A stretch of DNA of 16,399 nucleotides, taken from NCBI GenBank assembly GCA_918234285.1, contig CAKJXZ020000053.1, positions 1 to 16,399 on the forward strand, in the 5' to 3' direction. A program made the position numbers and the translations under genes. Each line of letters opens with the position of its first letter. Within the stretch, counting starts at the first letter, position 1. The notes beneath the pieces were generated by a model, which worked only from the letters and a program-made list of their open reading frames with translations, was not told the origin of the DNA and did not search any database. This document shows, in pieces, positions 1 to 16,139 of this stretch. The stretch comes from Pseudomonadota bacterium (GTDB taxonomy: Bacteria; Pseudomonadota; Alphaproteobacteria; RF32; CAG-239).

Positions 1-198
1 CATACCGAATGCCGCAGCTATATCGTCAGCCGGTTTAGCGGCCTTTGCTTGCGGTGCCGGCTTGGTTTCCATACCGAATGCCGCAGCTATATCATCAGCC
101 GGTTTGGCGGCCTTTGCTTGCGGTGTCGGCTTGGTTTCCATACCGAATGCCGCAGCTATATCGTCAGCCGGTTTGGCGGCCTTTGCTTGCGGTGCCGG
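1..198 (-). repeat. Coding tandem repeat, 69-bp unit, about 2.9 copies visible (23 aa, ETKPAPQAKAAKPADDIAAAFGM)
   Basis: cataccgaatgccgcagctatatc... recurs at 1, 70 and 139 with only a few substitutions. The unit length is a multiple of 3 and in frame with CDS 1..1815. It probably continues beyond the window. Confidence 0.95.
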
Positions 199-1815
199 AG
201 TCGGCTTTTTATTCTGATTATGTGATTCCTGCTTATTTTTTGTATCTTGAGCCGCCGCAAAGAGCGCGTCGATATCAATATCAACAACTTTATCAATCGG
301 TTCTTCCTCAGTTACACCATCATCAACGATAATATCTGAAATATCGATTTCTTTATTTTTGACCTCTTTTTCCTCAAACGGCTTTTCTTTTGCACTCTTG
401 CCACTGTTTACAAGAATATCGGAAATATCGATTTCTTTATTTTCGGCTTTGGTCGGAATGGCTTCTTTTTTACCAACGTTATTTGTTGCCGGCGGATTTT
501 TAGGCTTTGCCGTATTTTCGGCAACAGAAGTCTTTGTCGGCTCGGCTTGCTTGTGATGTTCCGGCTCTTTTATTTGCTGGGTGTGTTGTTTATCTTTGTT
601 TTTCGATTCGTCCTTATCTTTTACGAGCGAATTTGCCGTCGCATCTTTTTTCTCCGGCGCGGTTTCCGCCTTTTTCTCCGGCACAATTTCTTTTTTCTCC
701 GGAGTGGTTTCCGTCTTTTTCTCCGGCATAATTTCTTTCTTCTCCGGAGCAGTTTCCACCTTTGTTTCTACTTTTTTCTCCGGTACCGTTTCCGCTTTAA
801 TCGGTTGTTCGTTTTTATCTTTTTTGATGATATTGGAAGAGATGTTGGAAGCAACCTTCAAGATTTTATCGGCAATGCTTTCGTGAGGTTGCTCGGTCGT
901 ATCTTTGGTTTCATTGTCGAGATATACGTTTGCTTTATTCTGTTTTTCGACTTTAACTTCCGCATCGGCTCTTTTATCGGTAACAACGGCCGTATTCAAA
1001 GTTGGTGCAGAATCAGCAAGCGGTGCTGTCGGAGCGGCCGGAACAATAGGCGCAGCCGGAGCCGTAACCACCGCAGGAGCCTCTTTTTGAATGATGGTAC
1101 GTTCAATAATCTGCGGTTGCATATCTTTTTGTTGGGCCATCAGGGAAGAAATAAATTCCTTCTGCGATTCCATAATCGTTTGCGATAAGGTCTGTCCGAA
1201 GTTTTTCAAAACATCCATTTGTTGCTGCGAATTTTCCTTGAGCAACGTGCTGATTGTATCCGTAATATCGATATTCGGTGCACTTTTATCGGTAGATGAC
1301 CCTTTTTGTTGTGCGGCAATTTGCTGAATATTGGCATTAAGTTTTTGCAGATTTTGCGAATAGGTGCTGAAAGAATCAGTTAACGCCTTGGTAAAGTCGC
1401 TTCCCAACTCTAACGGTGCACTGATAACCGTCGGAACTACTTGCGCTGATGCAACCTGCATCGGGCTCGGAGCAGAATCGCCGGCAGGGGCTTTTTGATT
1501 GATAAGATTACTCAGCGCGGCATCCTTAATACCTTTTTGCGTCTCCAAATCGCTGATGTGTTCCAATAAAATCCGTCCGCCCGGCAACAGAGCTAAAATC
1601 TGGCGAATTTTATTCGGCATATCCAAGAGTTGCTGGTCAAATTCGGCTCGTTTGCCTTCCCGAAAAATATGAATCTGGTGAAATATATTCAGATAACGCT
1701 GAGCCGTCAGCAATAAATCTTCCTGATCTTCTCTATTGCCTCTGAACTCTGCGTTTTCATTCAATTCTGAATTTACGGCAGGCACCGGTTGTTCTTTTTC
1801 TTTGGCTTCTACCAT
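1..1815 (-). CDS. Large low-complexity/repetitive hypothetical protein (partial, at least 605 aa, runs off the left edge)
   Basis: I read this frame by hand and found no stop codon from ATG at 1815 to position 1. A GGGAG Shine-Dalgarno-like site lies just upstream. The N-terminus looks globular (MVEAKEKEQ...LLLTAQRYLNIFHQIHIF...LALLPGGRILLEHI). It is followed by Q-rich helical and A/P/E/K-rich disordered segments with in-frame repeats. It is absent from the ORF track because its stop lies outside the window. Confidence 0.85.
   Translation of the reverse strand, partial: MVEAKEKEQPVPAVNSELNENAEFRGNREDQEDLLLTAQRYLNIFHQIHIFREGKRAEFDQQLLDMPNKIRQILALLPGGRILLEHISDLETQKGIKDAALSNLINQKAPAGDSAPSPMQVASAQVVPTVISAPLELGSDFTKALTDSFSTYSQNLQKLNANIQQIAAQQKGSSTDKSAPNIDITDTISTLLKENSQQQMDVLKNFGQTLSQTIMESQKEFISSLMAQQKDMQPQIIERTIIQKEAPAVVTAPAAPIVPAAPTAPLADSAPTLNTAVVTDKRADAEVKVEKQNKANVYLDNETKDTTEQPHESIADKILKVASNISSNIIKKDKNEQPIKAETVPEKKVETKVETAPEKKEIMPEKKTETTPEKKEIVPEKKAETAPEKKDATANSLVKDKDESKNKDKQHTQQIKEPEHHKQAEPTKTSVAENTAKPKNPPATNNVGKKEAIPTKAENKEIDISDILVNSGKSAKEKPFEEKEVKNKEIDISDIIVDDGVTEEEPIDKVVDIDIDALFAAAQDTKNKQESHNQNKKPTPAPQAKAAKPADDIAAAFGMETKPTPQAKAAKPADDIAAAFGMETKPAPQAKAAKPADDIAAAFGM
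331..443 (-). repeat. Direct repeat of 29 bp x2 (peptide NKEIDISDI)
   Basis: aatatc(t/g)gaaatatcgatttctttatttt occurs at 331-359 and 415-443 with one mismatch. Confidence 0.85.
649..795 (-). repeat. Degenerate coding repeat of PEKK motifs (6 copies)
   Basis: Translation: AETVPEKKVETKVETAPEKKEIMPEKKTETTPEKKEIVPEKKAETAPEKK. The plus strand shows recurring ttctccgg. Confidence 0.85.
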
Positions 1816-1906: not shown

Positions 1907-2881
1907 TTAAAGATTGATAACCGCAACCTTATGAATTTTGGTTAAATCTTCATTGGTGAAATTAATGCGTTCCTCAGGATTCCAACGTAATCCGTACAGT
2001 TGACCGTTTTCATCCTCACGGATACTCAAAAGCTTTGTTTCCGTCTCGCTGATATAATACAGAGCGATATCTCCGGCGCTGACTACTTCAGACGGATCAA
2101 TAAACAACACGGAACGGCTTGAAAGCAGAGAACCTAAGCGGCGTGTGCATAAATTAATGGCATAAATATCCTGCTTACCGCGAAGGCAACTCGGACACGC
2201 AACTTCCTTGAAATTACCTGTACGGCTGACAATGATATTACCTTCGGCATTACCGACACCGTACAGCGGTACCAAAATGTCATCATTACTGTCTACCGAT
2301 GAAACACCGAGATTGGCATAACGTGCATTATTCAACACTTTATAGCGGGTATCGTTATGCTCAATAATATCTTCAAGCTGGCCGTCAGCATCCAGTTTTT
2401 GAATGGTAGACTTTAACTGATCTACCGTCATAGATAAAGCCTTGGCAATATTTTTGTATTCTTTATCCGAAACTTCACGCTGTCCCATCTCAATTCGATG
2501 GTACACCGATAAGGTCATGTCGGCATGCTCCGAAACCTCAATCAGAGTCAAGCCTTTGTTGGTACGAATATGACGCAAGCCGGCGCCGAGAGTTTTCAAA
2601 CCGGCGCTCTGATTGATTTTGCTGCGGCGTTCTTGTTCGCGCTTCCATGCCTGAACAACCTCTTGCTGCGAGTTTTGTTCGTTAACATATAAATCTTGTA
2701 ATGAGCAATCCAAAAGCTCAGCCACTTGAATCAGTTGTTCCTGATTCAATCTGCGATAACCTTTTTCGATTTTGGAAACAGCAGACAGACTGACACCCAG
2801 GTGATCAGCCAATTCCTGCATCGGCATACCATGAATACGACGATGCATTCTTATTTGATTTGGGAAAATAATTTCTTCCAT
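1907..2881 (-). CDS. XRE-family transcriptional regulator with two HTH domains and a C-terminal degenerate S24/LexA-like domain (324 aa)
   Basis: HTH1 is IRMHRRIHGMPMQELADHLGVSLSAVSKIEKGYRRL and HTH2 is LRHIRTNKGLTLIEVSEHADMTLSVYHRIEMGQREV. The C-terminal VPLYG...IYAINL...VLFIDP...AGDIAL...NPE follows the S24 pattern. An AGGGG SD lies upstream of the ATG. Confidence 0.88.
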   Translation of the reverse strand: MEEIIFPNQIRMHRRIHGMPMQELADHLGVSLSAVSKIEKGYRRLNQEQLIQVAELLDCSLQDLYVNEQNSQQEVVQAWKREQERRSKINQSAGLKTLGAGLRHIRTNKGLTLIEVSEHADMTLSVYHRIEMGQREVSDKEYKNIAKALSMTVDQLKSTIQKLDADGQLEDIIEHNDTRYKVLNNARYANLGVSSVDSNDDILVPLYGVGNAEGNIIVSRTGNFKEVACPSCLRGKQDIYAINLCTRRLGSLLSSRSVLFIDPSEVVSAGDIALYYISETETKLLSIREDENGQLYGLRWNPEERINFTNEDLTKIHKVAVINL

Positions 2882-3054: not shown

Positions 3055-5862
3055 TTAACTTTGCGCCGGCGGTTCAATATTAAGACCGGTCGCGGCCATC
3101 ACATCGTTATACGATACACCGGATTGATGCAACATTCCGTTCAGTGCATTGACCTCCGAATTTTCGGTATTCAGTGCTTCTTCAAACTTTTTGGCCCGGG
3201 TAGTACGTTGCATTTGGTCAAGCTGTATTTGCGCCAGGTGACGGTCATAATCTTCCTGCGTAAATCCGGCCATAGCCTGGTCGCGGTCGATGTTGTTACC
3301 CCAACGGCCTTGTGCATCAAGCGGCTGACGTCCTTTGTTTTTCTGATTCGCATATTCCGAAAAACTGCTCTTGCTGTCGTGGTCATACACCGGTTTGCCG
3401 TCAGGCCCGAGCACGACTTTGCCTTTGGCATCGCGTTTTACCGTATATTTGTTGACAGCGGTTTGGACACCGTTACTCTTGTGATGAGTAATATTGCCCT
3501 TGCCGTCAATTGTCTTCATATCGATAACCATTTGTTTGCCGACGATTTTAGCGTTAATTACGCGCTGTTTCATCAATTTTTCACCGGTTTCCGGATCTTT
3601 ACCGTCCTGATTGCTTTGGATAATGGTAAACGAACCGTCTTCATTGATTTTTACGTCGCGACTCGCAAACGTATCCGGTAAATCCAGACCGCGGCTTTCC
3701 ATAACTTCGGAAACCATGTATGTGGCGGCGGCTTCCGGGTTGGTGGCGTCGTTCTTGATTTGGTTAAAGGCTTTGGCATTGAGGGTGCCGTCGGTCTTCA
3801 CCAACTTATCGGCAGCGGCATTTTTGAAATCCGTTTTGGAACTGACAAGATTACCTTTGGTATCATATCGATTGGTCGTGGTTGAAACACCATCGTTAAT
3901 GGTCTGCGTCACACCTTTAGATTTTTTAGCGGTTATTTCCTGTCCTTCCAACGGGTGCAAAACCGAACGAGTGTACGGAGTTTTATACGAAACGATTTCA
4001 CCCTCCGGATTCATGGTAAACGTACGGCTTCCGTCGGCGGTGGAGTAGTGCGTATAGCCTTCCTCGTCTTTGGTAGCCGTCATTTCTTCATAGCCGGTAA
4101 CCACACCCAGAGTGCGTTGGCGCGATTGGAATCTTATATTACCGTTTTCATCACGCATCGGTTCGCCTTTTTCATCTCTCATCACTTCAAATGCTTTATC
4201 CACGGCTGTACGTTCCTTAGCATTCTGCATCGAAGTCCATACCCCGTTGGCATCACGAGTAACCGTGCGCTCGATTTCTTTTCCGAGTAGGCGCATGGTG
4301 CTGCGATAACCGATAACATCACCGGTTGAAGAGTCACGAATTTCTTCGTTTTGTGATAAGCCGGTTTTACTCAATCCTTTCATAGCCAAACCGGTCAGGT
4401 GGTTATAGCCGCTGCGGAAGGAATTTCCGAATTTTGAGTTTAACCCGTTACCTACAGCCTTAGCTCCCTCTGCGGTATAATGTGCGGCCGGTTGCGCAAC
4501 GTAGTTGGAAAATCCTTGCGCCATGGTACCGCCGACCATACGGCCGATACCTTCGCTTCCGCCCAATCCAGGAGAGTCGGCAAAGCGTTTAGCCATACTT
4601 CCGGCCTCGTCCATAAATGACCAGCAGAAGAAACAGATAGCCATCAGCTTGAAGGCACCGATACCCCACCAGGCTAAGCCCTCTATCTTGTTATCAAGCA
4701 TATCCATAAAGCTACCGGTCACAAATATTTCATCGTGGGATTCGATTTCCGCCGGCGAGAGGCTCGATAATCCGAGCCAGGAGGCCAAATTGGAGTTGAT
4801 AACGTAAATTATCAGAGCCATGAATACAAAGTTGAACATGGCATTCATGAAGAAAGTCCAAATTATCTTGACATACTTTTCGGTAATCTTAAAAGCGTAA
4901 GCGGCAATAGCACACGGAATCAACGCGGCGGCGACACACAACTGCAAAATACAATCAATCAAACACCACGGGAACGCCAGCATCAAAATCGAGCCGACTA
5001 CCCATAACACCCAACCGGTTGAAACATATCCTAACCCCGGTAACAGATTTTTGAGGAAGCGGTGTTTGTTGTGTGCCAGGCATATTGAATATTTGCCAAG
5101 ACCAACCATAATACCGGTGGCATCTTCCAAATTTTTGATACTGCAGACGATTGATTCGCCGATTTCCACCGGCAGACCGCCGTCAGCTCCGATTGCATAA
5201 TTGCCTTTATATCCTTTAATATTTTGCATATAATCACTTGATTTATCACAAGTGGAAGTCGAATTCAGTGTGTTGACGAAGTTAAATCCTGTTTTCATAA
5301 CCGGATTCAGCGTCAGATTCATAACTTGGAAGATGGCTCCGTTCAAAATCATCACTACCACCGACACACGGAAGGCTTGGAACAAAAAGCCTTTCAACAT
5401 CTCTCCGGTGGAAGTGGCGCTCGTCGTACCGATTTGTTTGGCAAAATAAAACAGCATCCAGATTAAAAATCCGATAATCACCAAATTCTTACTAGGTACC
5501 GCCAATTGGTTATTTGCGGTCAAAGCCAACGAACTGGCAACATTGAACATAATTTTGAATAAATTGCAGAAAACACAACTCTTTGAATCCAGGAACTCAC
5601 CTAAAGCGCAGTCTTTGGAATCACCTTCTTTGATTTGGGCCGGAGTTACTTCGGTGTTGGCTGAGCCGCCGGCTCCCCCGCCGTGAGCTACTTCCGGACT
5701 ACCGCAATAACCGGACGAACCGCAAGGACTATCCGTAGGACAACTTCCGCAGACTCCGCCCCATTCGGAACCGCCTGCGTATGCCGAAGACAGAGGAGCA
5801 AACGCACCCAGCAATAACATCAATAAAAACATATATAACTGCAATTTTCTCATATTCGTCAT
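3055..5862 (-). CDS. virB6: VirB6/TrbL-like type IV secretion membrane protein, unit 5 (935 aa), with long hydrophilic C-terminal extension
   Basis: Signal peptide (...SSAYA), Cys/Gly-rich head, CVFC motif and multiple TM segments. It carries the VirB6-like signature LIDCILQLCVAAALIPCAIAAYAFKITEKY...W..FMNAMFNF, then a Gly-rich linker and a ~480-aa soluble tail. An alternative start is at 5853. Confidence 0.72.
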   Translation of the reverse strand: MTNMRKLQLYMFLLMLLLGAFAPLSSAYAGGSEWGGVCGSCPTDSPCGSSGYCGSPEVAHGGGAGGSANTEVTPAQIKEGDSKDCALGEFLDSKSCVFCNLFKIMFNVASSLALTANNQLAVPSKNLVIIGFLIWMLFYFAKQIGTTSATSTGEMLKGFLFQAFRVSVVVMILNGAIFQVMNLTLNPVMKTGFNFVNTLNSTSTCDKSSDYMQNIKGYKGNYAIGADGGLPVEIGESIVCSIKNLEDATGIMVGLGKYSICLAHNKHRFLKNLLPGLGYVSTGWVLWVVGSILMLAFPWCLIDCILQLCVAAALIPCAIAAYAFKITEKYVKIIWTFFMNAMFNFVFMALIIYVINSNLASWLGLSSLSPAEIESHDEIFVTGSFMDMLDNKIEGLAWWGIGAFKLMAICFFCWSFMDEAGSMAKRFADSPGLGGSEGIGRMVGGTMAQGFSNYVAQPAAHYTAEGAKAVGNGLNSKFGNSFRSGYNHLTGLAMKGLSKTGLSQNEEIRDSSTGDVIGYRSTMRLLGKEIERTVTRDANGVWTSMQNAKERTAVDKAFEVMRDEKGEPMRDENGNIRFQSRQRTLGVVTGYEEMTATKDEEGYTHYSTADGSRTFTMNPEGEIVSYKTPYTRSVLHPLEGQEITAKKSKGVTQTINDGVSTTTNRYDTKGNLVSSKTDFKNAAADKLVKTDGTLNAKAFNQIKNDATNPEAAATYMVSEVMESRGLDLPDTFASRDVKINEDGSFTIIQSNQDGKDPETGEKLMKQRVINAKIVGKQMVIDMKTIDGKGNITHHKSNGVQTAVNKYTVKRDAKGKVVLGPDGKPVYDHDSKSSFSEYANQKNKGRQPLDAQGRWGNNIDRDQAMAGFTQEDYDRHLAQIQLDQMQRTTRAKKFEEALNTENSEVNALNGMLHQSGVSYNDVMAATGLNIEPPAQS

Positions 5863-5882
5863 CCTGTTTTCCGTTATCCGTC

Positions 5883-7781
5883 TCAGACCTCCAACTCACG
5901 ATATTCGTCCTGCTCTTCGGCCTTTAATCTCTCGGCTTCTTCATCTGCAGATACGACATCATTCCATTTCTGCATCCAGGAACGATTATCCGTTTTTCTG
6001 TTGCTGTTATCGCCAACCCAGTTGCCGAAATCTTTCAATACTCCGCCGAGTTTATCAGCCGATTTACCCATATCCTTGCCGGTGCGGGCCACGATTTGGC
6101 CGGTTTTCTTGGCAATAAAGCGGGTTCGTTGACCTTTGTTATCTTCCATAGCCTGAATGGCATCTCTGGTTGATTGCGGCATATTTGCCATCTGGCGTAC
6201 CGTTTTAATCGGATGAGCCATTTTCTTGAACGGTGTTGCCAACACATCTGTAGGGTTGAGGGTAATAGGGGCTTGATCTGCCTCTTTAAGGCCTTCCTTA
6301 AACCCTTGCGCAAATTCTTTGGCGCCTTTTCCGACCTTAGTATTTGAAACCTTTTCTTTTGCTGCTTTGGCAGTAGAAGAAACAGTTTCTGCCGCAGCTT
6401 CGATTTTCTCTCCGGTCTTTACCTTGGTCTCGTGCAAATCGGCGCGAACTTCTTCCGTAGACTTGTCCGAAACCGAAGCAATAGTTGCTGCAACCGCCTG
6501 CTTTCCGGCTTCTTTGGCAGCTCCTCCGCCGTGTGCAACCACATTCTCGGTTGCCTGTCCCACCGTCGGCGTGACTTTGTCGATATTACGCTGAAGCTTA
6601 TCGCCGACCTTTTTGGTGAAACGGTCAACTTTTTGATTAAATCCGTTGCCGGAACGCTTGCCGTTTTCCAATTTCCCGTCCAAAAAGTTCTGACGCTCGT
6701 CTTCGGTATATGGTAAAGGTGCGGCGGCAGTAACAAAATCGGCGGCTGTTTTTACCCCTTCACCGGCAGCCTGAACGGCATCGTTTGCCTTTTGTCCGAG
6801 GTTTTGAATGGCCTCATTGGCTCTTCTGCCGGCATTATGCATGGCATTATTGTAATATTGGCGCGGATTGGACATTACCCGTCTTACGCCTCTCCAACCG
6901 TCGGCAATTTTTTCTCTGCCTTCAGCCGAAATCAACGAGCCCATACCGCTGATGGCCTGTCCGGCCTGGTGAGTAACCACGTCTTTGGCAAAGTCTACAG
7001 CAGGCTTGGCTACATTTTGCGCCACCATACCGAAAGCCTGTGTACCCATTTGGTTTATCGGGCTTGAACTGCCGAACATGGCATCGCTGAAAAATGCGTT
7101 AAGATAGTCGTTTACACTGGATTCCAATATTCTGAAACCAAAGACCAGACTAAAGCCGACCACCAAAATATGGGAACTGAAGAACGAGAAATTCTCACTG
7201 ATTATTTCTGTTTGTTCTTGATCAATAGCATACCAAAAGGCCTGATCCCCGCCTTCAAACAATCCGGCATCGATTAAACAGACGGCAAATGCCACACCGA
7301 CTGACATAAGCATAAACAACATGGAATTACGGATAATCGTACCAAGGTTATCGATAAACTTGTTACTGGTCGGCGGGAACGGCCATAAAGCGATGCTTAT
7401 CGGCATAAAGATAATGGCAACACCAAGTCTGAGAGAGGCGTCCACAAAATACATGCCGACGCTTAAGGACATAAATATTCCCACCACATAAATAGCCAAT
7501 CCGACAAACAACAAGCCGATGTTCGGAACGTCAATCAAACCGAAAACGGAGGTTTTATCTACATCAATGGCATAACACATCAAGGCGTGCCCCACCATCA
7601 GAACATTGCCCATGGTTTTGTACGTAGCGGTCATCAACAAATGCATTCCCTGCAAGATTCCGTTATCAAACAAGCCCGCGCTGTCGGCGGCAACCTGAGC
7701 CTGCGCCGGCACGGCAAAGAGCACTTGAGCAATAATCAATGCCCAAACAAGGAAGATGATATTTTTCAGTCCGTTTCTCAT
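5883..7781 (-). CDS. virB6: VirB6/TrbL-like protein, C-terminal half of split unit 4 (~632 aa), with its own signal peptide and an A/K-rich helical tail
   Basis: An AAGGA SD lies 6 nt before ATG 7781; alternative starts are 7784, or 7796 with an ATGA overlap. The signal peptide is MRNGLKNIIFLVWALIIAQVLFAVPAQA. The signature is VGHALMC...FVDASLRLGVAIIFMPISIALWPFPPT. The track's extension to 8021 overlaps the upstream gene and is probably not translated. Confidence 0.72.
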   Translation of the reverse strand: MRNGLKNIIFLVWALIIAQVLFAVPAQAQVAADSAGLFDNGILQGMHLLMTATYKTMGNVLMVGHALMCYAIDVDKTSVFGLIDVPNIGLLFVGLAIYVVGIFMSLSVGMYFVDASLRLGVAIIFMPISIALWPFPPTSNKFIDNLGTIIRNSMLFMLMSVGVAFAVCLIDAGLFEGGDQAFWYAIDQEQTEIISENFSFFSSHILVVGFSLVFGFRILESSVNDYLNAFFSDAMFGSSSPINQMGTQAFGMVAQNVAKPAVDFAKDVVTHQAGQAISGMGSLISAEGREKIADGWRGVRRVMSNPRQYYNNAMHNAGRRANEAIQNLGQKANDAVQAAGEGVKTAADFVTAAAPLPYTEDERQNFLDGKLENGKRSGNGFNQKVDRFTKKVGDKLQRNIDKVTPTVGQATENVVAHGGGAAKEAGKQAVAATIASVSDKSTEEVRADLHETKVKTGEKIEAAAETVSSTAKAAKEKVSNTKVGKGAKEFAQGFKEGLKEADQAPITLNPTDVLATPFKKMAHPIKTVRQMANMPQSTRDAIQAMEDNKGQRTRFIAKKTGQIVARTGKDMGKSADKLGGVLKDFGNWVGDNSNRKTDNRSWMQKWNDVVSADEEAERLKAEEQDEYRELEV

Positions 7782-7792
7782 CATATTTCCTT

Positions 7793-8794
7793 TCATCGCA
7801 GAGCCTGCCCGGCCAATCCGGCAAACAAATCCAGACCGTATTTCAATCCTAAATCCAATACCGGATTTATGAAATAGTAGGCAATCAGCGGACCGGCTCT
7901 TTCCACAAACAAATAGGCCAATGATACCTTGAATCCCATCTTGATAATATCTTGCAGCAATTTTCCGATGGTTGTAGGCGTAAATGAAGCCAATTGTTGC
8001 AGCAAATAATATGCCAACCATATCATAAATCCGATTTCCAAAATCAACTTACCCAGCGATATAGCACTAGGCAAAGCTTTGCCGGCCGCCTGGAAAAACG
8101 AATTCATCAACACTACTACCACGTTGCAATACCAACAAAGTTTGGCATCATTGGTATCGTCCATATATATTTTTTTCATAGATTCAAACTTACAACCGCC
8201 GGCCGCTTTGGAGCCGTCACTGTTATCCGAATAATGCTGATTATGCGGCTGTTCCGGGGCATCTTTTTCTTGAACTTCTTCTTCCTTATCGGATGGCAGA
8301 GTAGGGTCATGCGACAACGCGGCATGTTCTTTGTTGTAGAAATACATACCGGAATTGACATCCTTAAACGCGCCGTTTGGACCGCCGCTGCGGCTGAACT
8401 CGTTAATATCGCCGTGTCCCAGTGAAGACAACGTACCGCTAACCGTTTGTTTTGCCAATCGGAGTGCCGTATTCCATCCGGCGGAATTCTGCCAACGCCG
8501 TTCGATGTTTTCTACACTGCCCAAATCGCCGGAAGGAGAGAAGGCACCGGAATTATAGATAATATCGGTGTAGGTAATATCTTTGTTGCCGTAGGCAGAT
8601 TGTTGTTCCTTGAGGCGATTGCGGAGAACGTTTGCCATATAGGTCATGGAAACTTCGTTACCGTTACGCGTTTCATTCATTAAAACGGCAGCAATCTGAT
8701 ATTCAACCAAACTCTTGCCGGCCCAAGCCGAACGCGGTAAAATACACAGTATCGCGACAAACAAGAACACAAATGCAAAAATACCTTTTCTCAT
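7793..8794 (-). CDS. Fusion protein (333 aa): signal peptide + SleB/Hydrolase_2-like cell-wall lytic transglycosylase domain + N-terminal (CxxC/TM) half of a VirB6-like unit
   Basis: IAAVLMNETRNGNEVSMTYMANVLRNR...TYTDIIYNSGAFS...GMYFY matches the SleB pattern LA..i..EArGE...g..aVa.VilNR...ti..Vvy...QFS...H.FY. The C-part, CWYC...ILEIGFMIWLAYYLLQ...GKLLQDIIKMGFKV...FINPVLDLGL, aligns by eye with the N-halves of the neighbouring paralogs. It has an ATGA overlap with the upstream gene and a GGAG SD. Confidence 0.75.
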   Translation of the reverse strand: MRKGIFAFVFLFVAILCILPRSAWAGKSLVEYQIAAVLMNETRNGNEVSMTYMANVLRNRLKEQQSAYGNKDITYTDIIYNSGAFSPSGDLGSVENIERRWQNSAGWNTALRLAKQTVSGTLSSLGHGDINEFSRSGGPNGAFKDVNSGMYFYNKEHAALSHDPTLPSDKEEEVQEKDAPEQPHNQHYSDNSDGSKAAGGCKFESMKKIYMDDTNDAKLCWYCNVVVVLMNSFFQAAGKALPSAISLGKLILEIGFMIWLAYYLLQQLASFTPTTIGKLLQDIIKMGFKVSLAYLFVERAGPLIAYYFINPVLDLGLKYGLDLFAGLAGQALR

Positions 8795-10248
8795 TGCCGT
8801 TCTCCCCTTTGCTGATTCTGATTTTTGTCGCGACCTGCCGCACGTTGCATGGCCTGTTTTGCTTTATTCATAGCCTCTTTTGCTTTCTGTACTTTATCTC
8901 TGAGAGCTCTCAATCTCGCGCTATAATTAATGGCTACCGTTGCTACCTTACCGGCACCTGCCGTAAGCGCTTCAAACGAAATTTGCGCAATTGTACCGAT
9001 GAGAGCGGCAACTTTTTGCTGGAACTTGGTATCTCCGCCGCCTCCCGAAACGCTTTCGGACATGGTAACAGCCATACCGGTTGCCTTAATGATGATAAAT
9101 CCCATCATAATCAGCGACAGAGGAATTGTGCCGAAACTCTGATATTCTTCAAGATCGCCGTATCGGTTGCCGTTTGCGGTCAACAATTCATTTACGGCAA
9201 ACACGGTCATCGAAACTAAAATGGCCAGGCACAGCATAATAGCTGCAGAGTTCAGAATAATCTTAAATCCGACATTGGTCCATTTACGGGTTTGTTCAAA
9301 GGCGTAGAACAAAATCAGGAACGGCATTATAACAATCATCATAACCATACGGAAAATCGCGTCTACGAGATAAAGCACGAAACCCCATTTGGCAATCAAA
9401 AAGGCTGCCATCAAGAATATACCGACGATGAACGGGAAAACGCCGTTGCCGAATACACCGCGCAGGGCCACGGTATAACCGGCATTCAGTTGGTCACTCA
9501 CCGCGCAGGCCATACAGCTCATCATATCAAGCGGTTCCTTCGGGAACGAAGAATCACTCATCTGCATAACCGTACCGGCCGGAACAGAGCATCCGCCGTC
9601 GGATATGGTGAAGTTGACCGGTTCCGTTTCACCGTCAATAACAACATCGCGAAGCGAGCCCGATTTTTGCGACATCAGCGACAATATCGCCGCGGCAAAT
9701 TCAAGTAATGTCATATAAATCGGAAACACAAAGGTATTGATGACATAGATGATATTGGTTGGAGAAGATGCCAGATAACCGCAAGCGAAGCATATTGCCG
9801 CCTTTCGTAGCACCTTGGTCCAGAATTCGCCGATAGATTCCGGTGAAGTAGCCGAAACATGCCGCAAAACCTGAAACGCTAACCACAAGGAAAATGCCAG
9901 CACCATCAACGACAATAAATCTTCGGTCGTTACTTTGGCATAAACATTGAGAGCCATATTGCTGAGGCCGTTGTAGAAGACTTTGAGGAGGGAAGCCTGA
10001 ATGCATTGTTTGCGTCCAGATACACAACGATTGTCTTCGTCAGGTTGCTCGTTTTGCATCACGCTTTTGCCATCGCCGACGGAAGGACATTCAAAACGTT
10101 GGCTGGCCGCGGTTTGCGGTTCACTTGCACCTCGCGACTGCTTGGCATTTTCTTCGTCACCGCACGCGGAAAGAAGGACAACCGTGCATAAAATAAGGCA
10201 CAGCACCTTTAAGATTTTCCAAATATTTATGTCCTTTATCCTAATCAT
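8791..10248 (-). CDS. virB6: VirB6/TrbL-like protein, unit 3 (~485 aa), predicted lipoprotein
   Basis: The likely start is ATG 10248 (alternative TTG 10299). It has a lipobox, VVLLSA-C (Cys29), and multiple TM segments. The signature is YLVDAIFRMVMMIVIMPFLILFYAFEQTRKW. The tail is short, basic and helical. Confidence 0.72.
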   Translation of the reverse strand: MIRIKDINIWKILKVLCLILCTVVLLSACGDEENAKQSRGASEPQTAASQRFECPSVGDGKSVMQNEQPDEDNRCVSGRKQCIQASLLKVFYNGLSNMALNVYAKVTTEDLLSLMVLAFSLWLAFQVLRHVSATSPESIGEFWTKVLRKAAICFACGYLASSPTNIIYVINTFVFPIYMTLLEFAAAILSLMSQKSGSLRDVVIDGETEPVNFTISDGGCSVPAGTVMQMSDSSFPKEPLDMMSCMACAVSDQLNAGYTVALRGVFGNGVFPFIVGIFLMAAFLIAKWGFVLYLVDAIFRMVMMIVIMPFLILFYAFEQTRKWTNVGFKIILNSAAIMLCLAILVSMTVFAVNELLTANGNRYGDLEEYQSFGTIPLSLIMMGFIIIKATGMAVTMSESVSGGGGDTKFQQKVAALIGTIAQISFEALTAGAGKVATVAINYSARLRALRDKVQKAKEAMNKAKQAMQRAAGRDKNQNQQRGERQ

Positions 10249-10323
10249 TGCAGTTCCACCCGTTGTATTTATTCTATCATAGTTCAGTATCTCTTTCAAT
10301 ATGGTTATAAGCCATCGTCATCC

Positions 10324-13053
10324 TCATTTTTTCGTCGGTTTATCCGGTTGCGGCTGAGGAATTTCAACTTTTGATTCCTGCGGCTGCGGTTGCGCCGGCT
10401 GTTCCGGTTGTTGCGGCGCCGGTTGTTGATCCGTCGGCTGCTGCGTCGGCTGTTCCGGTTGTTGCGGCGCCGGTTGTTGATCCGTTGGCTGTTGCTGTGC
10501 CGGCTGCGGCTGTTGCTGAGTTGTCGGCCTTGTGGCAGAACCGCTGTCTCCCGCCGGTTCCGGTTGCGTTTGATTGTCTGTTGCGTCCCTAGGCTGTCCT
10601 TCCTTTTGTCCGCTCGGAACATTATTGTTTTCTTGTGCGGAAGGTTTATCCGTAGGTTCTGATCTGTTTTGTTCCGCCGCTTCTCCGGCTTCGCCTTGGA
10701 CTTCCCCTGTCTCGACAGGATTTGGAGTAGTGCTTACCCGAGTGCGTTGCGGACCTTCTCCCGGCTCATTATTCTGCTGTGTTTCAGCTTCTGCCCGAGT
10801 TCCGTTCGGCGTTTTAGGCTGTTGTTGCGGTTTCTGAGCACCTTTATCATTTTGCTGTTGATCTGCAGGTTCGGCTGTTTCCTTTTCTGCCGGTTCGCCT
10901 GAGCTTTCTCCGGCCGTTTCGTCAGCCGGTGCTGCTTCATCATTGGCCAATGGAGTTACCGGTTCTCCCGAACCGCTGGTTCTTGATCCTTTGCCTTTCG
11001 GAGCGGCTTCTTCGCCGGAGCGCGGTGTACCGCCTTCATTGGTCGGTTTGCCCTCGCCGGAAGAAGGTGTGCCCTCCGTTTTAGGGGTCTCCTCACCGGT
11101 CGATGTATTCTCCAACGGTGTCTCGGTATCCGGTGTTTCAGGCGCCGTATCTCCACCAGGAGGAGGTGTCCCATCGCCACCCTGCTGCGGTGTTCCGCCT
11201 CCAGAAGGCGGCATATCTCCACCGGCTTGCGACGGAAGTCCGGAACCTGTTTGTTGATTTTGGAATCTTCCCAACCCCACTTTCTGGCCGAGAGTCTGCA
11301 GTCCGTTGTGTTTCATATCCGAAATTTTATCGGTTAATTCGTTAAATCCGGCCTTAATACCGGTATTCTCCAATGCGGCATTACCGGCATAACTGCCGAG
11401 TCTACCCATAGAATGTAATCCGCCTTTACCGACAGTAGTTGCCACACCGACGGCCGCAGTGCCCATTTTCGCACCGATATCGGAACCGGCACCTTGCGAG
11501 AATTGTTGTGCAAGTGAACTTACCTTAGCAATCAACTTTAAGGCAAAAATGCAGCAGGCGAGCAACATCAAAACTCTTATGCCGTCAAGCGATGCCAATT
11601 TTTTGAGGGTATCGGCTTCATTGTTGTTCACGGCGTGGAGTATTTCCTGCATACTCGAGCTGCCGTCGCCGGATACGGCAAACGCTATAATGGCAGTGCC
11701 GACCAATAAAACCGTGCCCATCAAAGCAAAGTTAAAGAATGTGTTCATCAGCATTTTAACACCTTTGACGGTGTATTGCTTAGTCAAGTCAAAAGGCCAA
11801 CAAGCTACCAACAACGGTACTAATGCACTGAGCATACCGATTTGTACCGTGCAGTCAATCAAATAAAACGACAGCGCCAACCAAATCATCAAGCCGAAAG
11901 CCAACATAATCAAACCGCTGAGGAACATGTGTAAATCAGGCAACAAATCACCGCCCCAGGTGCCGCTCGGTGCCGAGTGGCAAATCAATCCCATCCCCAC
12001 TGCCGGCAAAGTAGCGGCGGTGGCGCCAAAACATCTGACGGTACTCAGAACCTGATTAAACAGAGATTCATCCAATTCGGAAGAGGCAATTACTCCGTAT
12101 CCGCCCGGATTGGTATCGCACTGTATGTTACCGCTGGCAGATGCTATCGCCAGCCCCATATCCAATCCGCCACGAATAACCGGTGAAATAAACAAGGTAT
12201 AAATATATTGCGAGTTACTCAATAAGGTAACGGTGATAGCTATTTTCAGACCGATGAGTAGAACCGATTTCAAATATGTGCCGAGTTTAATACCGCCGGT
12301 TGAACCGACAGCTTTGAGAGACTCTATGGCTAACAATACCAAGAAAAAGATAATCACAACTTCGCTGAGCGGCTCTGCCGTGCTTTGCCAAGCAACGTGT
12401 GCAACACGAGCGCTGGCACTCAATGCCGCTTCAAACACTCCACACAACGGACAAGCAGCCAAACGTTGCTGGATACCGGTAAATGATTCGCATTTTCCGC
12501 CCTGTCCCTGCGCCAGGCCGGTATCTTTATCGAGAGTTTCACAAACAGGGTTTTCTCCGTTTTCGTCGCAAACGCAGGCGGTGGCAGAAGGATTTTTAAG
12601 TGCCTGAATACTTTTACGCATATTGTTATATGCCTCAATGGCCGGAGAGTAGGCGGCTTTAACCTCTTGCAACAGTTGAACGCAGGCCGTAGTATCGCCG
12701 CGAACATTACCCCACGGAATGCTGATATATTCGTATAAACTGTCATCTTCAATGTTTACACCTGCAGCTTTGGCGGCAACAGCATCATCAACCGAAATAC
12801 GTACTTTCGGTCCCGGATTTCCGCTTTCATCCAAACAATTGCCCATATAGGTCTGAGCCAGCGAGTTATATGGTCCTACCGCAGACTTAAATTGATTAAA
12901 TGAGGTTTTTAAATTATCCGTAAGTTCTTCTTTAACATTTGCCTGCACTTCCGGTTTACAAGTGTTTCCTTCTTCGGCAAATGCCGGCCCGGCTGCCGGT
13001 AAAATTACCGTCAGCAACAAAACCAAGAGAATTGTATACCACTTATTTTTCAT
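10324..13053 (-). CDS. virB6: VirB6/TrbL-like protein, unit 2 (~909 aa), with large N-terminal exported domain and P/Q/E/G/T-rich disordered tail
   Basis: The likely start is ATG 13053 (GAGG upstream; 11-bp overlap with the small gene). It has a signal peptide (...GPAFA) and a CPLC motif. The signature is YLIDCTVQIGMLSALVPLLVACWPFDLTKQY...MNTFFNF. The low-complexity tail is about 290 aa. Confidence 0.72.
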   Translation of the reverse strand: MKNKWYTILLVLLLTVILPAAGPAFAEEGNTCKPEVQANVKEELTDNLKTSFNQFKSAVGPYNSLAQTYMGNCLDESGNPGPKVRISVDDAVAAKAAGVNIEDDSLYEYISIPWGNVRGDTTACVQLLQEVKAAYSPAIEAYNNMRKSIQALKNPSATACVCDENGENPVCETLDKDTGLAQGQGGKCESFTGIQQRLAACPLCGVFEAALSASARVAHVAWQSTAEPLSEVVIIFFLVLLAIESLKAVGSTGGIKLGTYLKSVLLIGLKIAITVTLLSNSQYIYTLFISPVIRGGLDMGLAIASASGNIQCDTNPGGYGVIASSELDESLFNQVLSTVRCFGATAATLPAVGMGLICHSAPSGTWGGDLLPDLHMFLSGLIMLAFGLMIWLALSFYLIDCTVQIGMLSALVPLLVACWPFDLTKQYTVKGVKMLMNTFFNFALMGTVLLVGTAIIAFAVSGDGSSSMQEILHAVNNNEADTLKKLASLDGIRVLMLLACCIFALKLIAKVSSLAQQFSQGAGSDIGAKMGTAAVGVATTVGKGGLHSMGRLGSYAGNAALENTGIKAGFNELTDKISDMKHNGLQTLGQKVGLGRFQNQQTGSGLPSQAGGDMPPSGGGTPQQGGDGTPPPGGDTAPETPDTETPLENTSTGEETPKTEGTPSSGEGKPTNEGGTPRSGEEAAPKGKGSRTSGSGEPVTPLANDEAAPADETAGESSGEPAEKETAEPADQQQNDKGAQKPQQQPKTPNGTRAEAETQQNNEPGEGPQRTRVSTTPNPVETGEVQGEAGEAAEQNRSEPTDKPSAQENNNVPSGQKEGQPRDATDNQTQPEPAGDSGSATRPTTQQQPQPAQQQPTDQQPAPQQPEQPTQQPTDQQPAPQQPEQPAQPQPQESKVEIPQPQPDKPTKK
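10396..10495 (-). repeat. Coding tandem repeat, 51-bp unit x2 (QQPTDQQPAPQQPEQP)
   Basis: cggctgttccggttgttgcggcgccggttgttgatccgt recurs at 10396 and 10447. Confidence 0.9.
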
Positions 13054-13270
13054 CGGTTTCATCCTCTTTTGTTGCCGGAATTTCCGCTTGTTCCGAGTTA
13101 ATATTTTTATTGCCGAACCCCACAAAATAGGCAGCTGCGGCCAAAACTATAACCAACACCGCAAAAGCGGTAACATGAAAGGCTTGTGAACCCAATACGG
13201 AAAGGGCTCCGCACTTGAACAGCATGAAGATTGAAATCAGGATAATTAATGATAAAATAGTGGATTTCAT
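13043..13270 (-). CDS. Small membrane protein (75 aa, two hydrophobic segments, acidic tail)
   Basis: It has an ATGA overlap with the upstream stop and a GGAG SD. Its stop overlaps the next gene's start, so it fills the gap exactly. There are two hydrophobic stretches. Confidence 0.75.
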   Translation of the reverse strand: MKSTILSLIILISIFMLFKCGALSVLGSQAFHVTAFAVLVIVLAAAAYFVGFGNKNINSEQAEIPATKEDETDEK

Positions 13271-14874
13271 TTATTTTCTCCTTCTGTTTTATCCTGATTA
13301 AACCCATTGGTAATTTCGTCACTTTGCTGCTTGGAAGATTTATCATCGGTATCCATTCCCAAGGCTGCCTTAGTTTTGTTAACCGCATTGTCTTTGAAGT
13401 TTTTCGTTGCGGTCTTGACTTTGCCCGCACCGGCTTTGGCCGCACCGGTAACTCCGAGATCGTCACTCGCCGATTTAAGTTGCGAACCGACACCTTTAAC
13501 CGCATTTTTAGCCAAACCGGCCGCACCGCCGAGATTACCAGGCTTTCCGCCTTCACCGCTCAAAGCATCGCCGACCGCGGCCTTAGTTACCAACGAGGCA
13601 GCGGTACCGCCGAGATTGCCACCCAAACCGCCGAGTTGCGCTCCGGCTGCGAACTTGCTGGCCAAACGATTGGCTTCTCCCGGTAATTTGAAACACATAA
13701 AGCAACACACGATAACCATCAGCATCTGTAACCCGCCGATTTGGATGGTGTCTTCCAAACTGGTAACGCTGTCGCTGTTAATCAAATTTATCAGCTCTTC
13801 CTGAGATATCCCTACGGAAAGAGCCTGTCCGGAAATACCGACAATCGTGGCAACGATAATTCCCATCATTACAAAATTAAAGAAAACGTTTAAGAACATA
13901 TTCCAACCGATTTTGGTGTAACCGGAAGTCATTTTGAACGGCCAACATGCCACAAAAAACGCCATCAGCGCACACACTATTCCCAATTCTATGACGCAGT
14001 CAAGCATATAAAATCCGATAGCCAGCCAAATACCTACACCGGAAATATATAGTAGCGCACCCTCGGTCAGCATACCGATACGCGGAATAACTTTCATACG
14101 GAAAAACCATTCCAAATCTTTCCACGAATTACAAATAAAACCGCGCCCGATGGCCGGCATTGTGGTTGCACCGTTGCTGAAATTCTCTACGGCACCAACC
14201 ATAATTTGCGCGGTTCTTGCCGAAAAATATTCATTGGATGGATCAAAGGCACTCGCGTATTTTGCCCCGGTTTCCGCCGCTTTTTGCGAAGTTGTACCGG
14301 TAAGCGCCATGCCGAAATCCACACTGCTTTCCAAAATCGGACTGAGTAGTTTATTGTATAAAAATGTCGGATGCTGTAAAATTAAAATGGTGATAGCTAC
14401 CTTGAACCCCTGAAGCAGTAAATCAGTCAGGTATTTACCAAGTTTTTGTGCTTCTGGAGAGGCAACGGACATTAGAGTCAGATATCCTACATAAATCAGA
14501 AAAGCAATAGTCAGCAGTTCAATCAGGGCATCACTGGTTGCTTCAAACGAGCTCTTAGAAATTGTCTGCACCGCTCCCATTAGATTGGCAAATAAGCTGC
14601 ATGTAAAGCATTTATCTAAGAATTGCCGTTCGTAATCAGTAACGGTCTCGCATTCGTCGTCCGAATCTTTACCGGGCTCTGTCTGTGTGTTTTGTGGGGT
14701 TGATTGGTCACAGATGACTGTATTGTTATCATCGCATAAGCAACCTGCCTGTGCATTCGGGAGTGCAAACGGACAATTATGCAGTGTGCTAGCGGCAAAA
14801 GCAGGAGCCGTCCATAACACCGCAACGGTTAGGAATAATAAAAATAAATAACGGACGCAGCTCCTCAGTTCCAT
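13267..14874 (-). CDS. virB6: VirB6/TrbL-like protein, unit 1 (~535 aa)
   Basis: The likely start is ATG 14874 (TAAGGA SD), rather than 14934. It has a signal peptide (...APAFA), a Cys-rich head and a CFTC motif. The signature is YMLDCVIELGIVCALMAFFVACWPFKMTSGY...W.MFLNVFFNF. The G/A-rich tail is typical of TrbL. Confidence 0.72.
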   Translation of the reverse strand: MELRSCVRYLFLLFLTVAVLWTAPAFAASTLHNCPFALPNAQAGCLCDDNNTVICDQSTPQNTQTEPGKDSDDECETVTDYERQFLDKCFTCSLFANLMGAVQTISKSSFEATSDALIELLTIAFLIYVGYLTLMSVASPEAQKLGKYLTDLLLQGFKVAITILILQHPTFLYNKLLSPILESSVDFGMALTGTTSQKAAETGAKYASAFDPSNEYFSARTAQIMVGAVENFSNGATTMPAIGRGFICNSWKDLEWFFRMKVIPRIGMLTEGALLYISGVGIWLAIGFYMLDCVIELGIVCALMAFFVACWPFKMTSGYTKIGWNMFLNVFFNFVMMGIIVATIVGISGQALSVGISQEELINLINSDSVTSLEDTIQIGGLQMLMVIVCCFMCFKLPGEANRLASKFAAGAQLGGLGGNLGGTAASLVTKAAVGDALSGEGGKPGNLGGAAGLAKNAVKGVGSQLKSASDDLGVTGAAKAGAGKVKTATKNFKDNAVNKTKAALGMDTDDKSSKQQSDEITNGFNQDKTEGENK

Positions 14875-14908: not shown

Positions 14909-14966
14909 CAGTATAACATAAAATTTTTCAACATTTTATGACAAATTTGTTAAATTTTCGTAACAA
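14909..14966 (-). promoter_or_regulatory. Putative operon promoter region (extended -10-like TGtTATACT; inverted repeat TTGTTA-N8-TAACAA)
   Basis: This is the AT-rich 130-bp gap before the first operon gene. TGtTATACT lies on the minus strand near 14911-14919 and the dyad at 14947-14966. Confidence 0.35.
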
Positions 14967-15004: not shown

Positions 15005-15940
15005 CTAAACCGGCATGGCTTCGGTGTTGTTTTCAATTACCACGGTTGCGCCGCGAGTATTATCTTCATCATCATCATCTTCTTCATCGTCAGATAATTT
15101 GCCGAATTCACCGCTCACAATATAATTGCGGGCATATTGCGCCACGGCATCACTGCTCAGCGGAAAATAAGTGTCTTTACGGATTTTTTTTATGTTGTCG
15201 GAATAGGACTCTTCGCTCGGAGGAGTGGAAAACGGAAAGCTATCGAATCGAGAGAGCAACTTTTTAACTCTATCGTGAACAGTCAGCGGAGCAAACAAAA
15301 TGCCGTGTTCAATGTCGTGAGGCAAACGCGCCAAAGCAACCGCTCGCGGAGTTGAAATATCACGCAACATCGGGCCTAAAATGAAATTGAAAAAATCTCT
15401 TGTGGTAAGTAACTCAGCCAAATCACTGCCGGAGTTAAGCGGGTTAATATCAAGGATTCGCGCAATATTGTACTGACGATAATTATTGCTTTTACTCAGT
15501 AATTTTCGTGTAATCAGACAACTGCAACCGACGTTTATGATATACAGTCGACCGCGGATTTCAATGTTTTTCAAAAATTGCGACAGCATGGTTGCGTGAT
15601 AATAAATATTGCGACGCAGCGAAGGATATCCCAAACAAACAACGTTCATCGGTAATTCTTTGAGCGAATCAGCCAATTTTTTTACGGATTTTTTGGAACG
15701 ACCGAATCCGTGTAAGATTAAAACAGTGTCATCATAAAGCGGACTTAATTCGTAGGCCTCTATATATTTTAAAAGTATATCTTTACATTGCGCAAAAGTT
15801 CCGGAGTGCCGCCGAATATTATGCGGATCAAGCAGGCGACATTTATTGTTGATGATATTACGCTGTATCACCCAATCTTGATAATTATATAAATCTTCCC
15901 AAAAGAATCGACCACCAAATGTGAAAAAATCGAATTTCAT
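15005..15940 (-). CDS. Alpha/beta-hydrolase-fold protein (esterase/lipase-like), apparently catalytically degenerate (311 aa)
   Basis: VLILHGFGRS oxyanion motif, LGYPS, and an NPLNSGSDLA loop (PP..GS.LA type). The N-terminal extension is TFGGRFFWED...W.IQRN...CRLLDP. The nucleophile elbow reads INVGCSC. There is a strong GGAGG SD and an acidic C-tail. Confidence 0.8.
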   Translation of the reverse strand: MKFDFFTFGGRFFWEDLYNYQDWVIQRNIINNKCRLLDPHNIRRHSGTFAQCKDILLKYIEAYELSPLYDDTVLILHGFGRSKKSVKKLADSLKELPMNVVCLGYPSLRRNIYYHATMLSQFLKNIEIRGRLYIINVGCSCLITRKLLSKSNNYRQYNIARILDINPLNSGSDLAELLTTRDFFNFILGPMLRDISTPRAVALARLPHDIEHGILFAPLTVHDRVKKLLSRFDSFPFSTPPSEESYSDNIKKIRKDTYFPLSSDAVAQYARNYIVSGEFGKLSDDEEDDDDEDNTRGATVVIENNTEAMPV

Positions 15941-16139
15941 AAAATTAACCTCCGAATCTGATTCGAATCTTGAAAGAAAATGTTTAATAAAAACTTAATG
16001 TTTTGATTTTTAATACTTTTTTAAGAAAAATTGAGGCTAGCCATCAACAAAAGGCAAAATTTTCAGCGGATGGAAACAGTAAAAATCGGGGACTGTTGAT
16101 AATTTTTTCACAATTTAAATTTACGAAAAATCAATAAGT

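Follow-up and report, generated by a model that had tools for sequence, protein, structure and literature searches.

Gene content of the array

The window analysed here, i.e. the whole stretch of 16,399 bases, is a complete contig (C53) and not part of a longer one. It belongs to an alphaproteobacterial genome of the RF32 group (assembly GCA_918234285.1) that comprises 2.0 Mb on 71 contigs and is, as judged by marker genes, 100% complete and 2.58% contaminated. Every long gene of C53 is located on the minus strand. Seven co-oriented genes form an array that is predicted to encode five VirB6/TrbL units, membrane subunits of a type IV secretion system (T4SS), and one protein of 75 amino acids (aa). 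This composition had been proposed in the initial annotation and was confirmed by calls of open reading frames (ORFs) and by BLASTP. In the direction of transcription, the genes of C53 are arranged in the order I, A, the 75-aa ORF, B, C, D, E, F, a gene for an XRE-family regulator, and H. The array itself consists of the following genes, for which export signals and glycine-rich linkers were judged by eye from the translations:

13267-14874, minus strand: A, predicted VirB6 paralogue of 535 aa as counted from the ATG at 14874 (the ORF extends to 14934); the signal peptide is followed by a short head rich in Cys, CFTC, the membrane core, the WPF motif and a G-rich tail
13043-13270, minus strand: small conserved membrane protein of 75 aa; the gene overlaps at its 5' end with the stop of A and at its 3' end with the start of B
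10324-13062, minus strand: B, predicted VirB6 paralogue of 912 aa; helical Cys-rich head of ~170 aa, CPLC, core, WPF motif, Pro/Gln/Glu-rich tail of ~330 aa
8791-10248, minus strand: C, predicted VirB6 paralogue of 485 aa (the ORF extends to 10299); lipoprotein-type signal (LLSAC), YAF motif, short tail
7793-8794, minus strand: D, 333 aa; signal peptide, a weak domain resembling SleB-type cell-wall hydrolases, CWYC, and the predicted N-terminal half-core of a VirB6 protein
5883-7796, minus strand: E, 637 aa; signal peptide of its own, predicted C-terminal half-core of a VirB6 protein, WPF motif, Lys/Ala-rich tail of ~370 aa
3055-5862, minus strand: F, predicted VirB6 paralogue of 935 aa; Cys/Gly-rich head, CVFC, core, YAF motif, tail of ~480 aa with repeated short Asp/Gly-rich stretches

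Stop and start codons overlap in the form of ATGA at three junctions, namely between A and the 75-aa ORF (13267-13270), between C and D (8791-8794), and between D and E (7793-7796). All three overlaps are located exactly where they had been noted before.

Assignment of the units to the VirB6/TrbL family

By sequence and by modelled fold, the units are VirB6/TrbL proteins. Unit C is the sole protein of the genome that matches the Pfam family TrbL (PF04610), with a score of 34.1 bits (36.1 in another scan) at a cut-off of 25.9. The match of E is weak and below the cut-off (13.3 bits), and A, B, D and F gave no individual TrbL match in the Pfam scan. NCBIfam provided no model for any of the units, and the few named relatives carry the title 'hypothetical protein'. 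As annotation names none of the units, surveys based on annotation would miss VirB6 and score the T4SS as incomplete.

The units are related to one another over large parts of their lengths. BLASTP linked A with B (8e-59), A with F (6e-32), B with F (5e-32), B with C (6e-12) and A with C (2e-9), and the paralogy of A, B, C and F spans 370-480 residues. A family alignment was composed of these four units and 20 relatives from databases; 15 of its 24 members match TrbL at E≤0.01, and 27 of the 30 nearest named Atlas clusters fall in the TrbL set. Among 1.84 billion representatives, the family profile matched 1,634 clusters at E≤0.001 and 818 at E≤1e-30. Its match to F had an E value of 2.5e-147.

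Structure models, which cover A and B, point in the same direction. The core of A was modelled by AlphaFold with a predicted local distance difference test (pLDDT) score of about 85-94, and the top five Foldseek rows for this model are all TrwI, the VirB6 protein of plasmid R388. The A model aligned to TrwI/VirB6 (8rt9_F) with a Z score of 15.2 and a root-mean-square deviation (rmsd) of 5.1 over 269 of 272 residues, and the B model (residues 201-527) with a Z score of 14.6 and an rmsd of 4.9, likewise over 269 of 272 residues. A designed repeat protein (Z 10.5) and DotA of the Legionella Dot/Icm system (Z 9.8 for A and 11.2 for B) followed in the next rows, the DotA scores being within the chance range for helical membrane proteins according to the note of the tool. 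When the PDB was searched by sequence, neither unit C nor the family profile retrieved a VirB6 chain; it was the fold comparison alone that found one. For the head of B (residues 35-170) only weak helical structural matches with Z scores of about 6 were obtained. When the cores of A and B were paired in a prediction run without controls, the score was 0.00, which speaks neither for nor against binding. Thus, the PF04610 scan, the family profile, and the AlphaFold and Foldseek results agree in assigning the core to a T4SS family, as the initial annotation had proposed.

Shared motifs and the split unit

A motif of the form D-x11-[PA]-x5-[WY][PA]F-xx-T is present at the aligned position in all five units (A, B, C, E and F). 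The initial annotation had ascribed one common architecture to them, and for this motif it was right. The second element of that architecture, a CxxC pair in front of the membrane core, is found at the aligned position in four of the five units (CFTC in A, CPLC in B, CWYC in D, CVFC in F) and is absent from C. At the variable position of the motif, A, B and E read WPF as opposed to YAF in C and F. Excerpts of PMC2653234 report an essential tryptophan in the central membrane/cytoplasmic region of VirB6 proteins, and the aligned motif position may correspond to this residue.

In BLASTP comparisons D aligned solely to the N-terminal half of other units (A, B and F) and E solely to the C-terminal half, from which we infer that D and E together constitute one split unit. 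ORFs confined to the N-terminal half are present in 22 of the 23 array-bearing relatives of the same genus, and genome G025, which belongs to another family, has an unsplit gene at the D/E position. The split is thus old and has been retained, and the two halves are both constrained. The N-half ORFs of the genus come in two size classes, of 176-235 aa and 303-417 aa.

The hydrolase-like domain of D matches Hydrolase_2 with 16.9 bits, which is below the Pfam cut-off of 27. In the congeneric genome G004, the C-half gene (L094 7573-9873) starts with a confident SleB-type Hydrolase_2 domain (52 bits), to which residues 8-128 of D align with an E value of 6e-6. The product of this gene is the orthologue of E (34% identity, E 1e-57). 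The domain is thus found on the C-half gene in G004 but on the N-half gene in the genome studied here, and it seems to have moved between the two half genes within the genus. A hydrolase-like domain attached to a VirB6 fragment could plausibly replace VirB1.

The remaining secretion machinery of the genome

None of the nine window proteins scanned matched a family of VirB3, VirB4, VirB8, VirB9, VirB10, VirB11, relaxases, integrases or transposases. The initial annotation had stated that other T4SS genes were missing, and this is true of the 16.4-kb contig alone. Its description of the array as a stand-alone system does not hold because a full VirB/D4 gene set is distributed over contigs C17, C24 and C30; VirB4, VirB9 and VirB10, for which it had advised a search, are all encoded in the genome. 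C17 carries, in this order, three genes for VirB2 pilins, the genes for VirB3 and VirB4, about six genes without a family, two genes for VirB8, one for VirB9 with a SPOR domain, a VirB10-like pair, and the gene for VirB11. VirD4 is encoded on C24. VirB4 is present in a single copy according to both Pfam and a phmmer search against all ORFs of the genome, and VirB9 is likewise single, whereas VirB8 occurs in triplicate, as a tandem pair on C17 and a third copy on C30. For VirB5 the best PF07996 match reached 13.4 bits (E 0.08) and fell on an unrelated contig; the family-less ORFs that follow virB4 could conceal an analogue. Three relaxase families (PF03432, PF03389 and PF08751) gave zero matches in the genome.

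The VirB6 family profile matched just six ORFs among the 11,417 six-frame ORFs of the genome, all of them on C53, and gave no match on C17. Because its matches are confined to C53, the operon is the only VirB6 supply of the machine.

Several features of the T4SS loci deserve separate mention. The VirB10-like pair on C17 (L004 10460-14695 and 14698-18900) consists of tandem paralogues of 1,411 and 1,400 aa that match each other with an E value of 5e-62; the TrbI/VirB10 domain is present only in the second of them (1,400 aa), and both are far longer than usual VirB10 proteins. The genes without Pfam family between virB4 and virB8 (L003 16823-20000 and L004 1-6949) include one for a protein of 1,789 aa and may code for lineage-specific T4SS parts or effectors. 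Directly upstream of the virB2 genes (L003 7905-10269, C17, minus strand) there is a gene for a secretin and one for a TcpQ-domain protein, with a T2SSE-type ATPase encoded nearby, which suggests a type IVb-pilus or Tad-like system. When the tandem VirB8 proteins were used to search the PDB, one gave three weak matches to 'VirB8 protein' (E 4e-5 to 5e-4) and the other none. The solitary third VirB8-like gene (L093 6591-7385, C30) is located among housekeeping genes, with genes for GroEL and a ribonucleotide-reductase-like protein nearby.

Conservation, inheritance and selection

Of 24 genomes of the same genus, 23 carry the array; the remaining one is 83% complete. In a first sample it was also found in the only other family of the order examined (1/1) and in one of 15 other families. 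Relatives are encoded in 160 stretches of a species-level genome collection, and the 78 loci kept from these all originate from gut or rumen metagenome bins, most of which are titled Alphaproteobacteria. Four loci that carry the array (L035, L039, L041 and L042) are titled Eubacteriales, [Ruminococcus] gnavus or Bacteroidaceae; these bins are probably mislabelled or mixed.

The nearest relatives keep the identical order I-A-small-B-C-D-E-F. Homologues of the 75-aa protein, for which neither Pfam nor NCBIfam gave a family, share 84%, 72% and 52% identity in L012, L013 and L015, respectively, and the array of G048 contains a similar gene of 73 aa (E 3.8e-5). In G048, G102, G279 and G180, which belong to other families, a lone array of two to five VirB6 genes is followed by the same XRE regulator, the G180 array ending at a contig end. 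On the longer contigs of G011, G020 and G004, the array is flanked by plsX/fabH-type genes and an ATP synthase operon. Synteny in relatives of the genus and the order thus bears out the earlier suggestion of a chromosomal locus, here among housekeeping genes.

VirB4 was encoded on a separate contig in all five array-bearing genomes tested (G004, G011, G020, G025 and G027). In G048, G231 and G129, VirB4 and the array are located on one contig, 26-63 kb apart. In a class-wide sample of 301 genomes, 17 had at least three TrbL matches, and 15 of these 17 genomes are not larger than 2.5 Mb. The identity of VirB4 to that of the genome studied here amounts to 73% within the family, 51-65% in eight other families with small genomes, 39-42% in six more, and at most 33% elsewhere. 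Such a stepwise fall fits vertical descent. TrbL matches were found in 22 of the 25 sampled genomes of the class whose VirB4 is at least 39% identical. The best 120 database proteins listed for VirB4 are all close kin with 76-93% identity and are named at most 'Alphaproteobacteria bacterium'.

A quick maximum-likelihood tree was calculated from 61 core sequences, from which three gappy rows, one fragment and the two N-half genes, had been excluded. In this tree, every unit groups with its positional counterpart in G004 (support 98-100), and A and B are sisters (support 99). The clade of C (support 92-98) also has members from other genera, from the second family of the order and from another order, and F groups with the last array gene of G025. 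Lineage-specific duplications are apparent as well; examples are the A/B pair of this genus and, in G048 and G102, units 1-3.

Purifying selection acts on all eight genes from I to F, with approximate ratios of nonsynonymous to synonymous substitution rates (dN/dS) of 0.03-0.21 in comparison with the two nearest relatives (A, 0.07-0.13; 75-aa ORF, 0.21; D, 0.10; E, 0.08; F, 0.06-0.08). Within the units dN is about 0.01 in the membrane cores as compared with 0.1-0.26 in heads and tails. Between this genome (G000) and G004, identity amounts to 86% for VirB4, 77% for the XRE regulator, 72% for VirB3, 48-59% for VirB2, and 34-42% for the VirB6 units. VirB6 units and pilins thus diverge far faster than the ATPase. 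The retention of positional orthologues under purifying selection suggests that the paralogues are non-redundant parts.

Comparison with known secretion systems

The closest parallel is the rvh T4SS of Rickettsiales. According to excerpts of PMC2653234, PMC11077975 and 10.1101/2025.08.29.673095, rvh comprises four to five tandem VirB6 proteins that are ~80% diverged, bear variable extensions and are encoded behind virB3-virB4; VirB4, VirB8 and VirB9 are duplicated, VirB5 is lacking, the genes are arranged in islets, and the system has been termed a 'bona fide rickettsial signature'. The array described here shares with RvhB6a-e (VirB6-1..4) the four to five tandem, extremely diverged VirB6 proteins with large variable extensions. 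As in the rvh system, so far as those excerpts describe it, the genes are chromosomal, vertically kept, found in small genomes and arranged in islets, and other components are duplicated. Common to both are also the multicopy VirB6 (five units here) and the duplicated VirB8 (three copies here). A VirB5 is lacking from rvh according to the same excerpts; here, the search for a canonical VirB5 gave no more than the PF07996 match mentioned above, and an analogue could be concealed among the family-less ORFs. Even the split of one copy has a precedent in these excerpts, virB6d of R. bellii OSU 85-389.

By contrast, VirB4 and VirB9 are single here, and the array stands alone beside an XRE regulator and not behind virB3-virB4. 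The relatives are gut or rumen bacteria whose records are labelled Alphaproteobacteria, Rhodospirillaceae or Azospirillaceae, not Rickettsiales. Going beyond rvh, the present system has a triple VirB2, a double VirB10-like protein, a hydrolase-bearing split unit and a lipoprotein unit. It resembles rvh in principle and is not classed as rvh because three of six hallmarks fail. When the class sample was searched for the Rickettsiales layout, in which large VirB6 genes come after virB3-virB4, the sole candidates were G158 and G300, where three small TrbL genes come after virB4; their VirB4 proteins are 24-25% identical to that of the genome studied here, and the family profile misses their TrbL genes.

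With TrwI/VirB6 of R388 (PDB 7o3v, 8rt9, 8rtd) the units appear to have the membrane-core fold in common, as judged by the models, and in the case of C also the Pfam family. Sequence identity between TrwI and the units is 9-14%. According to PDB entry titles, TrwI/VirB6 forms the stalk base together with TrwJ/VirB5. The R388 system differs in that it is conjugative and plasmid-borne and has one short VirB6 (272 residues modelled) with a VirB5 partner, the virB6 gene being located inside the operon. DotA (PDB 9ngy), the second-best natural structural match, is similar in being a large polytopic T4SS membrane protein with extra domains; it belongs, however, to a type IVB system and is not encoded in an array.

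Proposed function and alternative explanations

We consider it likely that the operon supplies all VirB6 subunits of a chromosomal, vertically inherited, paralogue-expanded VirB/D4-type T4SS whose genes are scattered over several loci. VirB6 is pentameric and serves as the platform in the inner membrane from which the secretion stalk rises. In the model that we propose, a single operon would give rise to all five units at the same time; after export and insertion into the inner membrane, these would form what is probably a mixed oligomer beneath the stalk of the machine whose genes are on C17, C24 and C30. Their Cys-rich periplasmic heads and long tails may add periplasmic and cytoplasmic functions that are supplied by separate proteins in minimal systems: the hydrolase-like domain on D could stand in for VirB1, unit C, being a lipoprotein, might serve as envelope anchor, and the role of the undetected VirB5 would perhaps fall to the heads. 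The adjacent regulator with its two helix-turn-helix (HTH) domains may control the operon. We further propose that proteins and not plasmid DNA are the cargo that the machine delivers to neighbouring cells, which could be bacteria, gut protists or host cells. The lack of relaxase matches, the fixed chromosomal place and the fast evolution of exposed parts make protein delivery likelier than conjugation.

Several observations weigh against this model or loosen individual parts of it. The array is unlinked from all other T4SS genes, and its functional link to them is deduced from co-occurrence and from the lack of any other VirB6; that C53 and C17 belong to one cell is in turn based on metagenome binning and on the same co-occurrence in relatives. 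Other lineages have three to five units, and a strict pentamer with one copy of each can therefore not be general. C and F have a tyrosine at a position that may be that of the tryptophan reported as essential for VirB6 in the excerpts of PMC2653234. The tree is a quick one with many long branches and its deep nodes are unsafe, and dS is near saturation (0.4-1.3), which makes the dN/dS values rough. Finally, no RNA run was listed as containing the stretch, and three metatranscriptome contig sets yielded only 31-letter pieces on the A-rich stretch 16139-16179 and none on the genes.

Alternatively, as in the exchangeable channel subunits of the initial annotation, each paralogue could form a homo-oligomeric base of its own, and the cell would exchange these bases so as to alter the substrate, the target or the epitopes exposed. 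The pronounced differences between the extensions of the units, the concentration of sequence change in heads and tails as opposed to cores, and the fact that VirB6 and pilins evolve fastest are in line with such a model, and so are the lineage-specific duplications and a copy number that ranges from three to five. We nevertheless regard it as unlikely. The ATGA overlaps couple translation within one operon, so that the units are probably co-produced; every paralogue is retained in fixed order in 22 genus relatives without signs of loss or pseudogenes; and one unit is split into halves that cannot work alone.

In none of the genomes inspected is the array physically linked to virB genes, and it has a conserved regulator and conserved flanking genes of its own. 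These features and the large non-VirB6 extensions could also be reconciled with a VirB6-derived membrane complex that acts independently of a T4SS, e.g. as surface adhesins or as a separate envelope machine. This possibility appears very unlikely to us: the T4SS would then be left with no VirB6, TrbL matches accompany related VirB4 proteins in most of the class genomes sampled, and the cores are the most constrained parts of the proteins. Still harder to credit is an origin as remnant or cargo of a conjugative or integrative element, even though TrbL/VirB6 is typical of conjugation systems and the contig ends fall in repeats. The window contains no integrase, transposase or relaxase gene, and the genome no match to the three relaxase families. 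The same block is found in the same housekeeping neighbourhood across the genus and the order, the identity of VirB4 falls with kinship, and neither tRNA genes nor direct repeats frame the array. The initial annotation had likewise argued against a role in plasmid conjugation, and the lack of relaxase matches together with the conserved location in the genus genomes supports it in this respect.

If the paralogue-expanded T4SS that we favour is correct, the design principle of rvh recurs, with other duplicated parts and in another layout, in abundant uncultured Alphaproteobacteria of the gut and rumen. The system would provide an independent comparison for the question of why VirB6 multiplies; the purpose of the rvh duplications is called a mystery in the excerpted parts of two reviews (PMC11077975, 10.1101/2025.08.29.673095). 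It would also flag a secretion system, probably one that delivers effectors, in a gut lineage with reduced metabolism; alphaproteobacterial RF32 and Rs-D84 bins are described as metabolically reduced in excerpts of a rumen study. Our literature search found no paper on a T4SS or a VirB6 array in RF32 or Rs-D84 gut Alphaproteobacteria; the rvh taxon lists (Fig. S1 of PMC11077975; Supplementary figure 3 of 10.1101/2022.10.13.511287) were outside this search and may bear on the matter.

It is tempting to go one step further and to speculate, albeit tentatively and with the balance tilting towards no, that an entire radiation of gut Alphaproteobacteria with reduced genomes has, as an old and vertically inherited trait, a secretion machine in the style of Rickettsiales. 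Its marks would be scattered islets, several VirB6, VirB8, VirB2 and VirB10 paralogues, and the lack of a relaxase, and its carriers would inhabit the guts of ruminants, horses, mice and people. If this were true, multicopy VirB6 would not be a signature of Rickettsiales but the mark of a wider and older effector system, supposed commensals would live by contact-dependent injection into protists, bacteria or host cells, and the stalk base would be a mixed one, composed of the VirB6 set, whose extensions would contribute VirB1-like and VirB5-like functions.

Flanking genes and contig ends

Outside the array, C53 contains the following features:

16155-16399, plus strand: repeated segment of 245 bases with TTGACA (16183)-17-TATAAA pointing outward after an A/T-rich stretch
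15005-15940, minus strand: I, 311 aa, without a family; 70 bases before the longest start of A
14915-14944, minus strand: promoter-like site TTGTCA-18-TATGTT, 41 bases upstream of the ATG at 14874, with 9 of 12 consensus matches
1907-2881, minus strand: XRE-family regulator with two HTH domains and a C-terminal domain without a family
1-1815, minus strand: H, repeat-rich protein with a conserved N-terminal region, low-complexity sequence and 23-aa tandem repeats; its end leaves the contig

The promoter scan consisted of consensus matching alone and found 29 sites as compared with 26.4 expected by chance. Gene I shares 94%, 89% and 82% identity with its counterparts in L012, L013 and L015, respectively, and is also located upstream of the arrays in G020, G004, G025 and G130 (E 3.7e-37 in the latter). 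The two HTH domains of the XRE regulator were detected as HTH_3 (1.5e-21) in two stretches of the protein. The regulator is encoded beside VirB6 arrays in G048, G102, G279 and G180 (E 1e-74 to 1e-112) and also in G011, G020, G004 and G025. It showed in addition a weak NCBIfam match (50 bits at a cut-off of 300) to Wmk, the male-killing protein of Wolbachia phage WO, which probably reflects only the common double-HTH layout. Protein H is encoded at the same place in relatives, always after the XRE gene.

The segment at 16155-16399 recurs at the end of C28 (68017-68261) with one mismatch (score 242 of 245). The initial annotation had placed the array next to a probable rrn promoter. In favour of this view are the outward-pointing promoter-like sequence in a repeat at the contig end and the lack of a 16S gene in the assembly. 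Ribosomal RNA (rRNA) itself was not seen: the window contains neither rRNA nor tRNA, and an Rfam scan of the loci of 16 relatives detected no rRNA upstream of the array. The proposal is thus plausible and unproven. For 65 of the 78 loci from relatives, the contig end lies 1.0-4.0 kb upstream of the VirB6 gene that was matched, and an rRNA operon that diverges from gene I and is present in two genome copies is a likely explanation for these contig ends.

At the left end, the 69-nt (23-aa) tandem repeats of H occur in 2.9 copies at 1-198 and again at 644-763, and the break of the assembly at this end is attributed to them. The end of contig C63 of this genome holds the missing end of H together with the ATP synthase operon, and C63 therefore joins the left end of C53.

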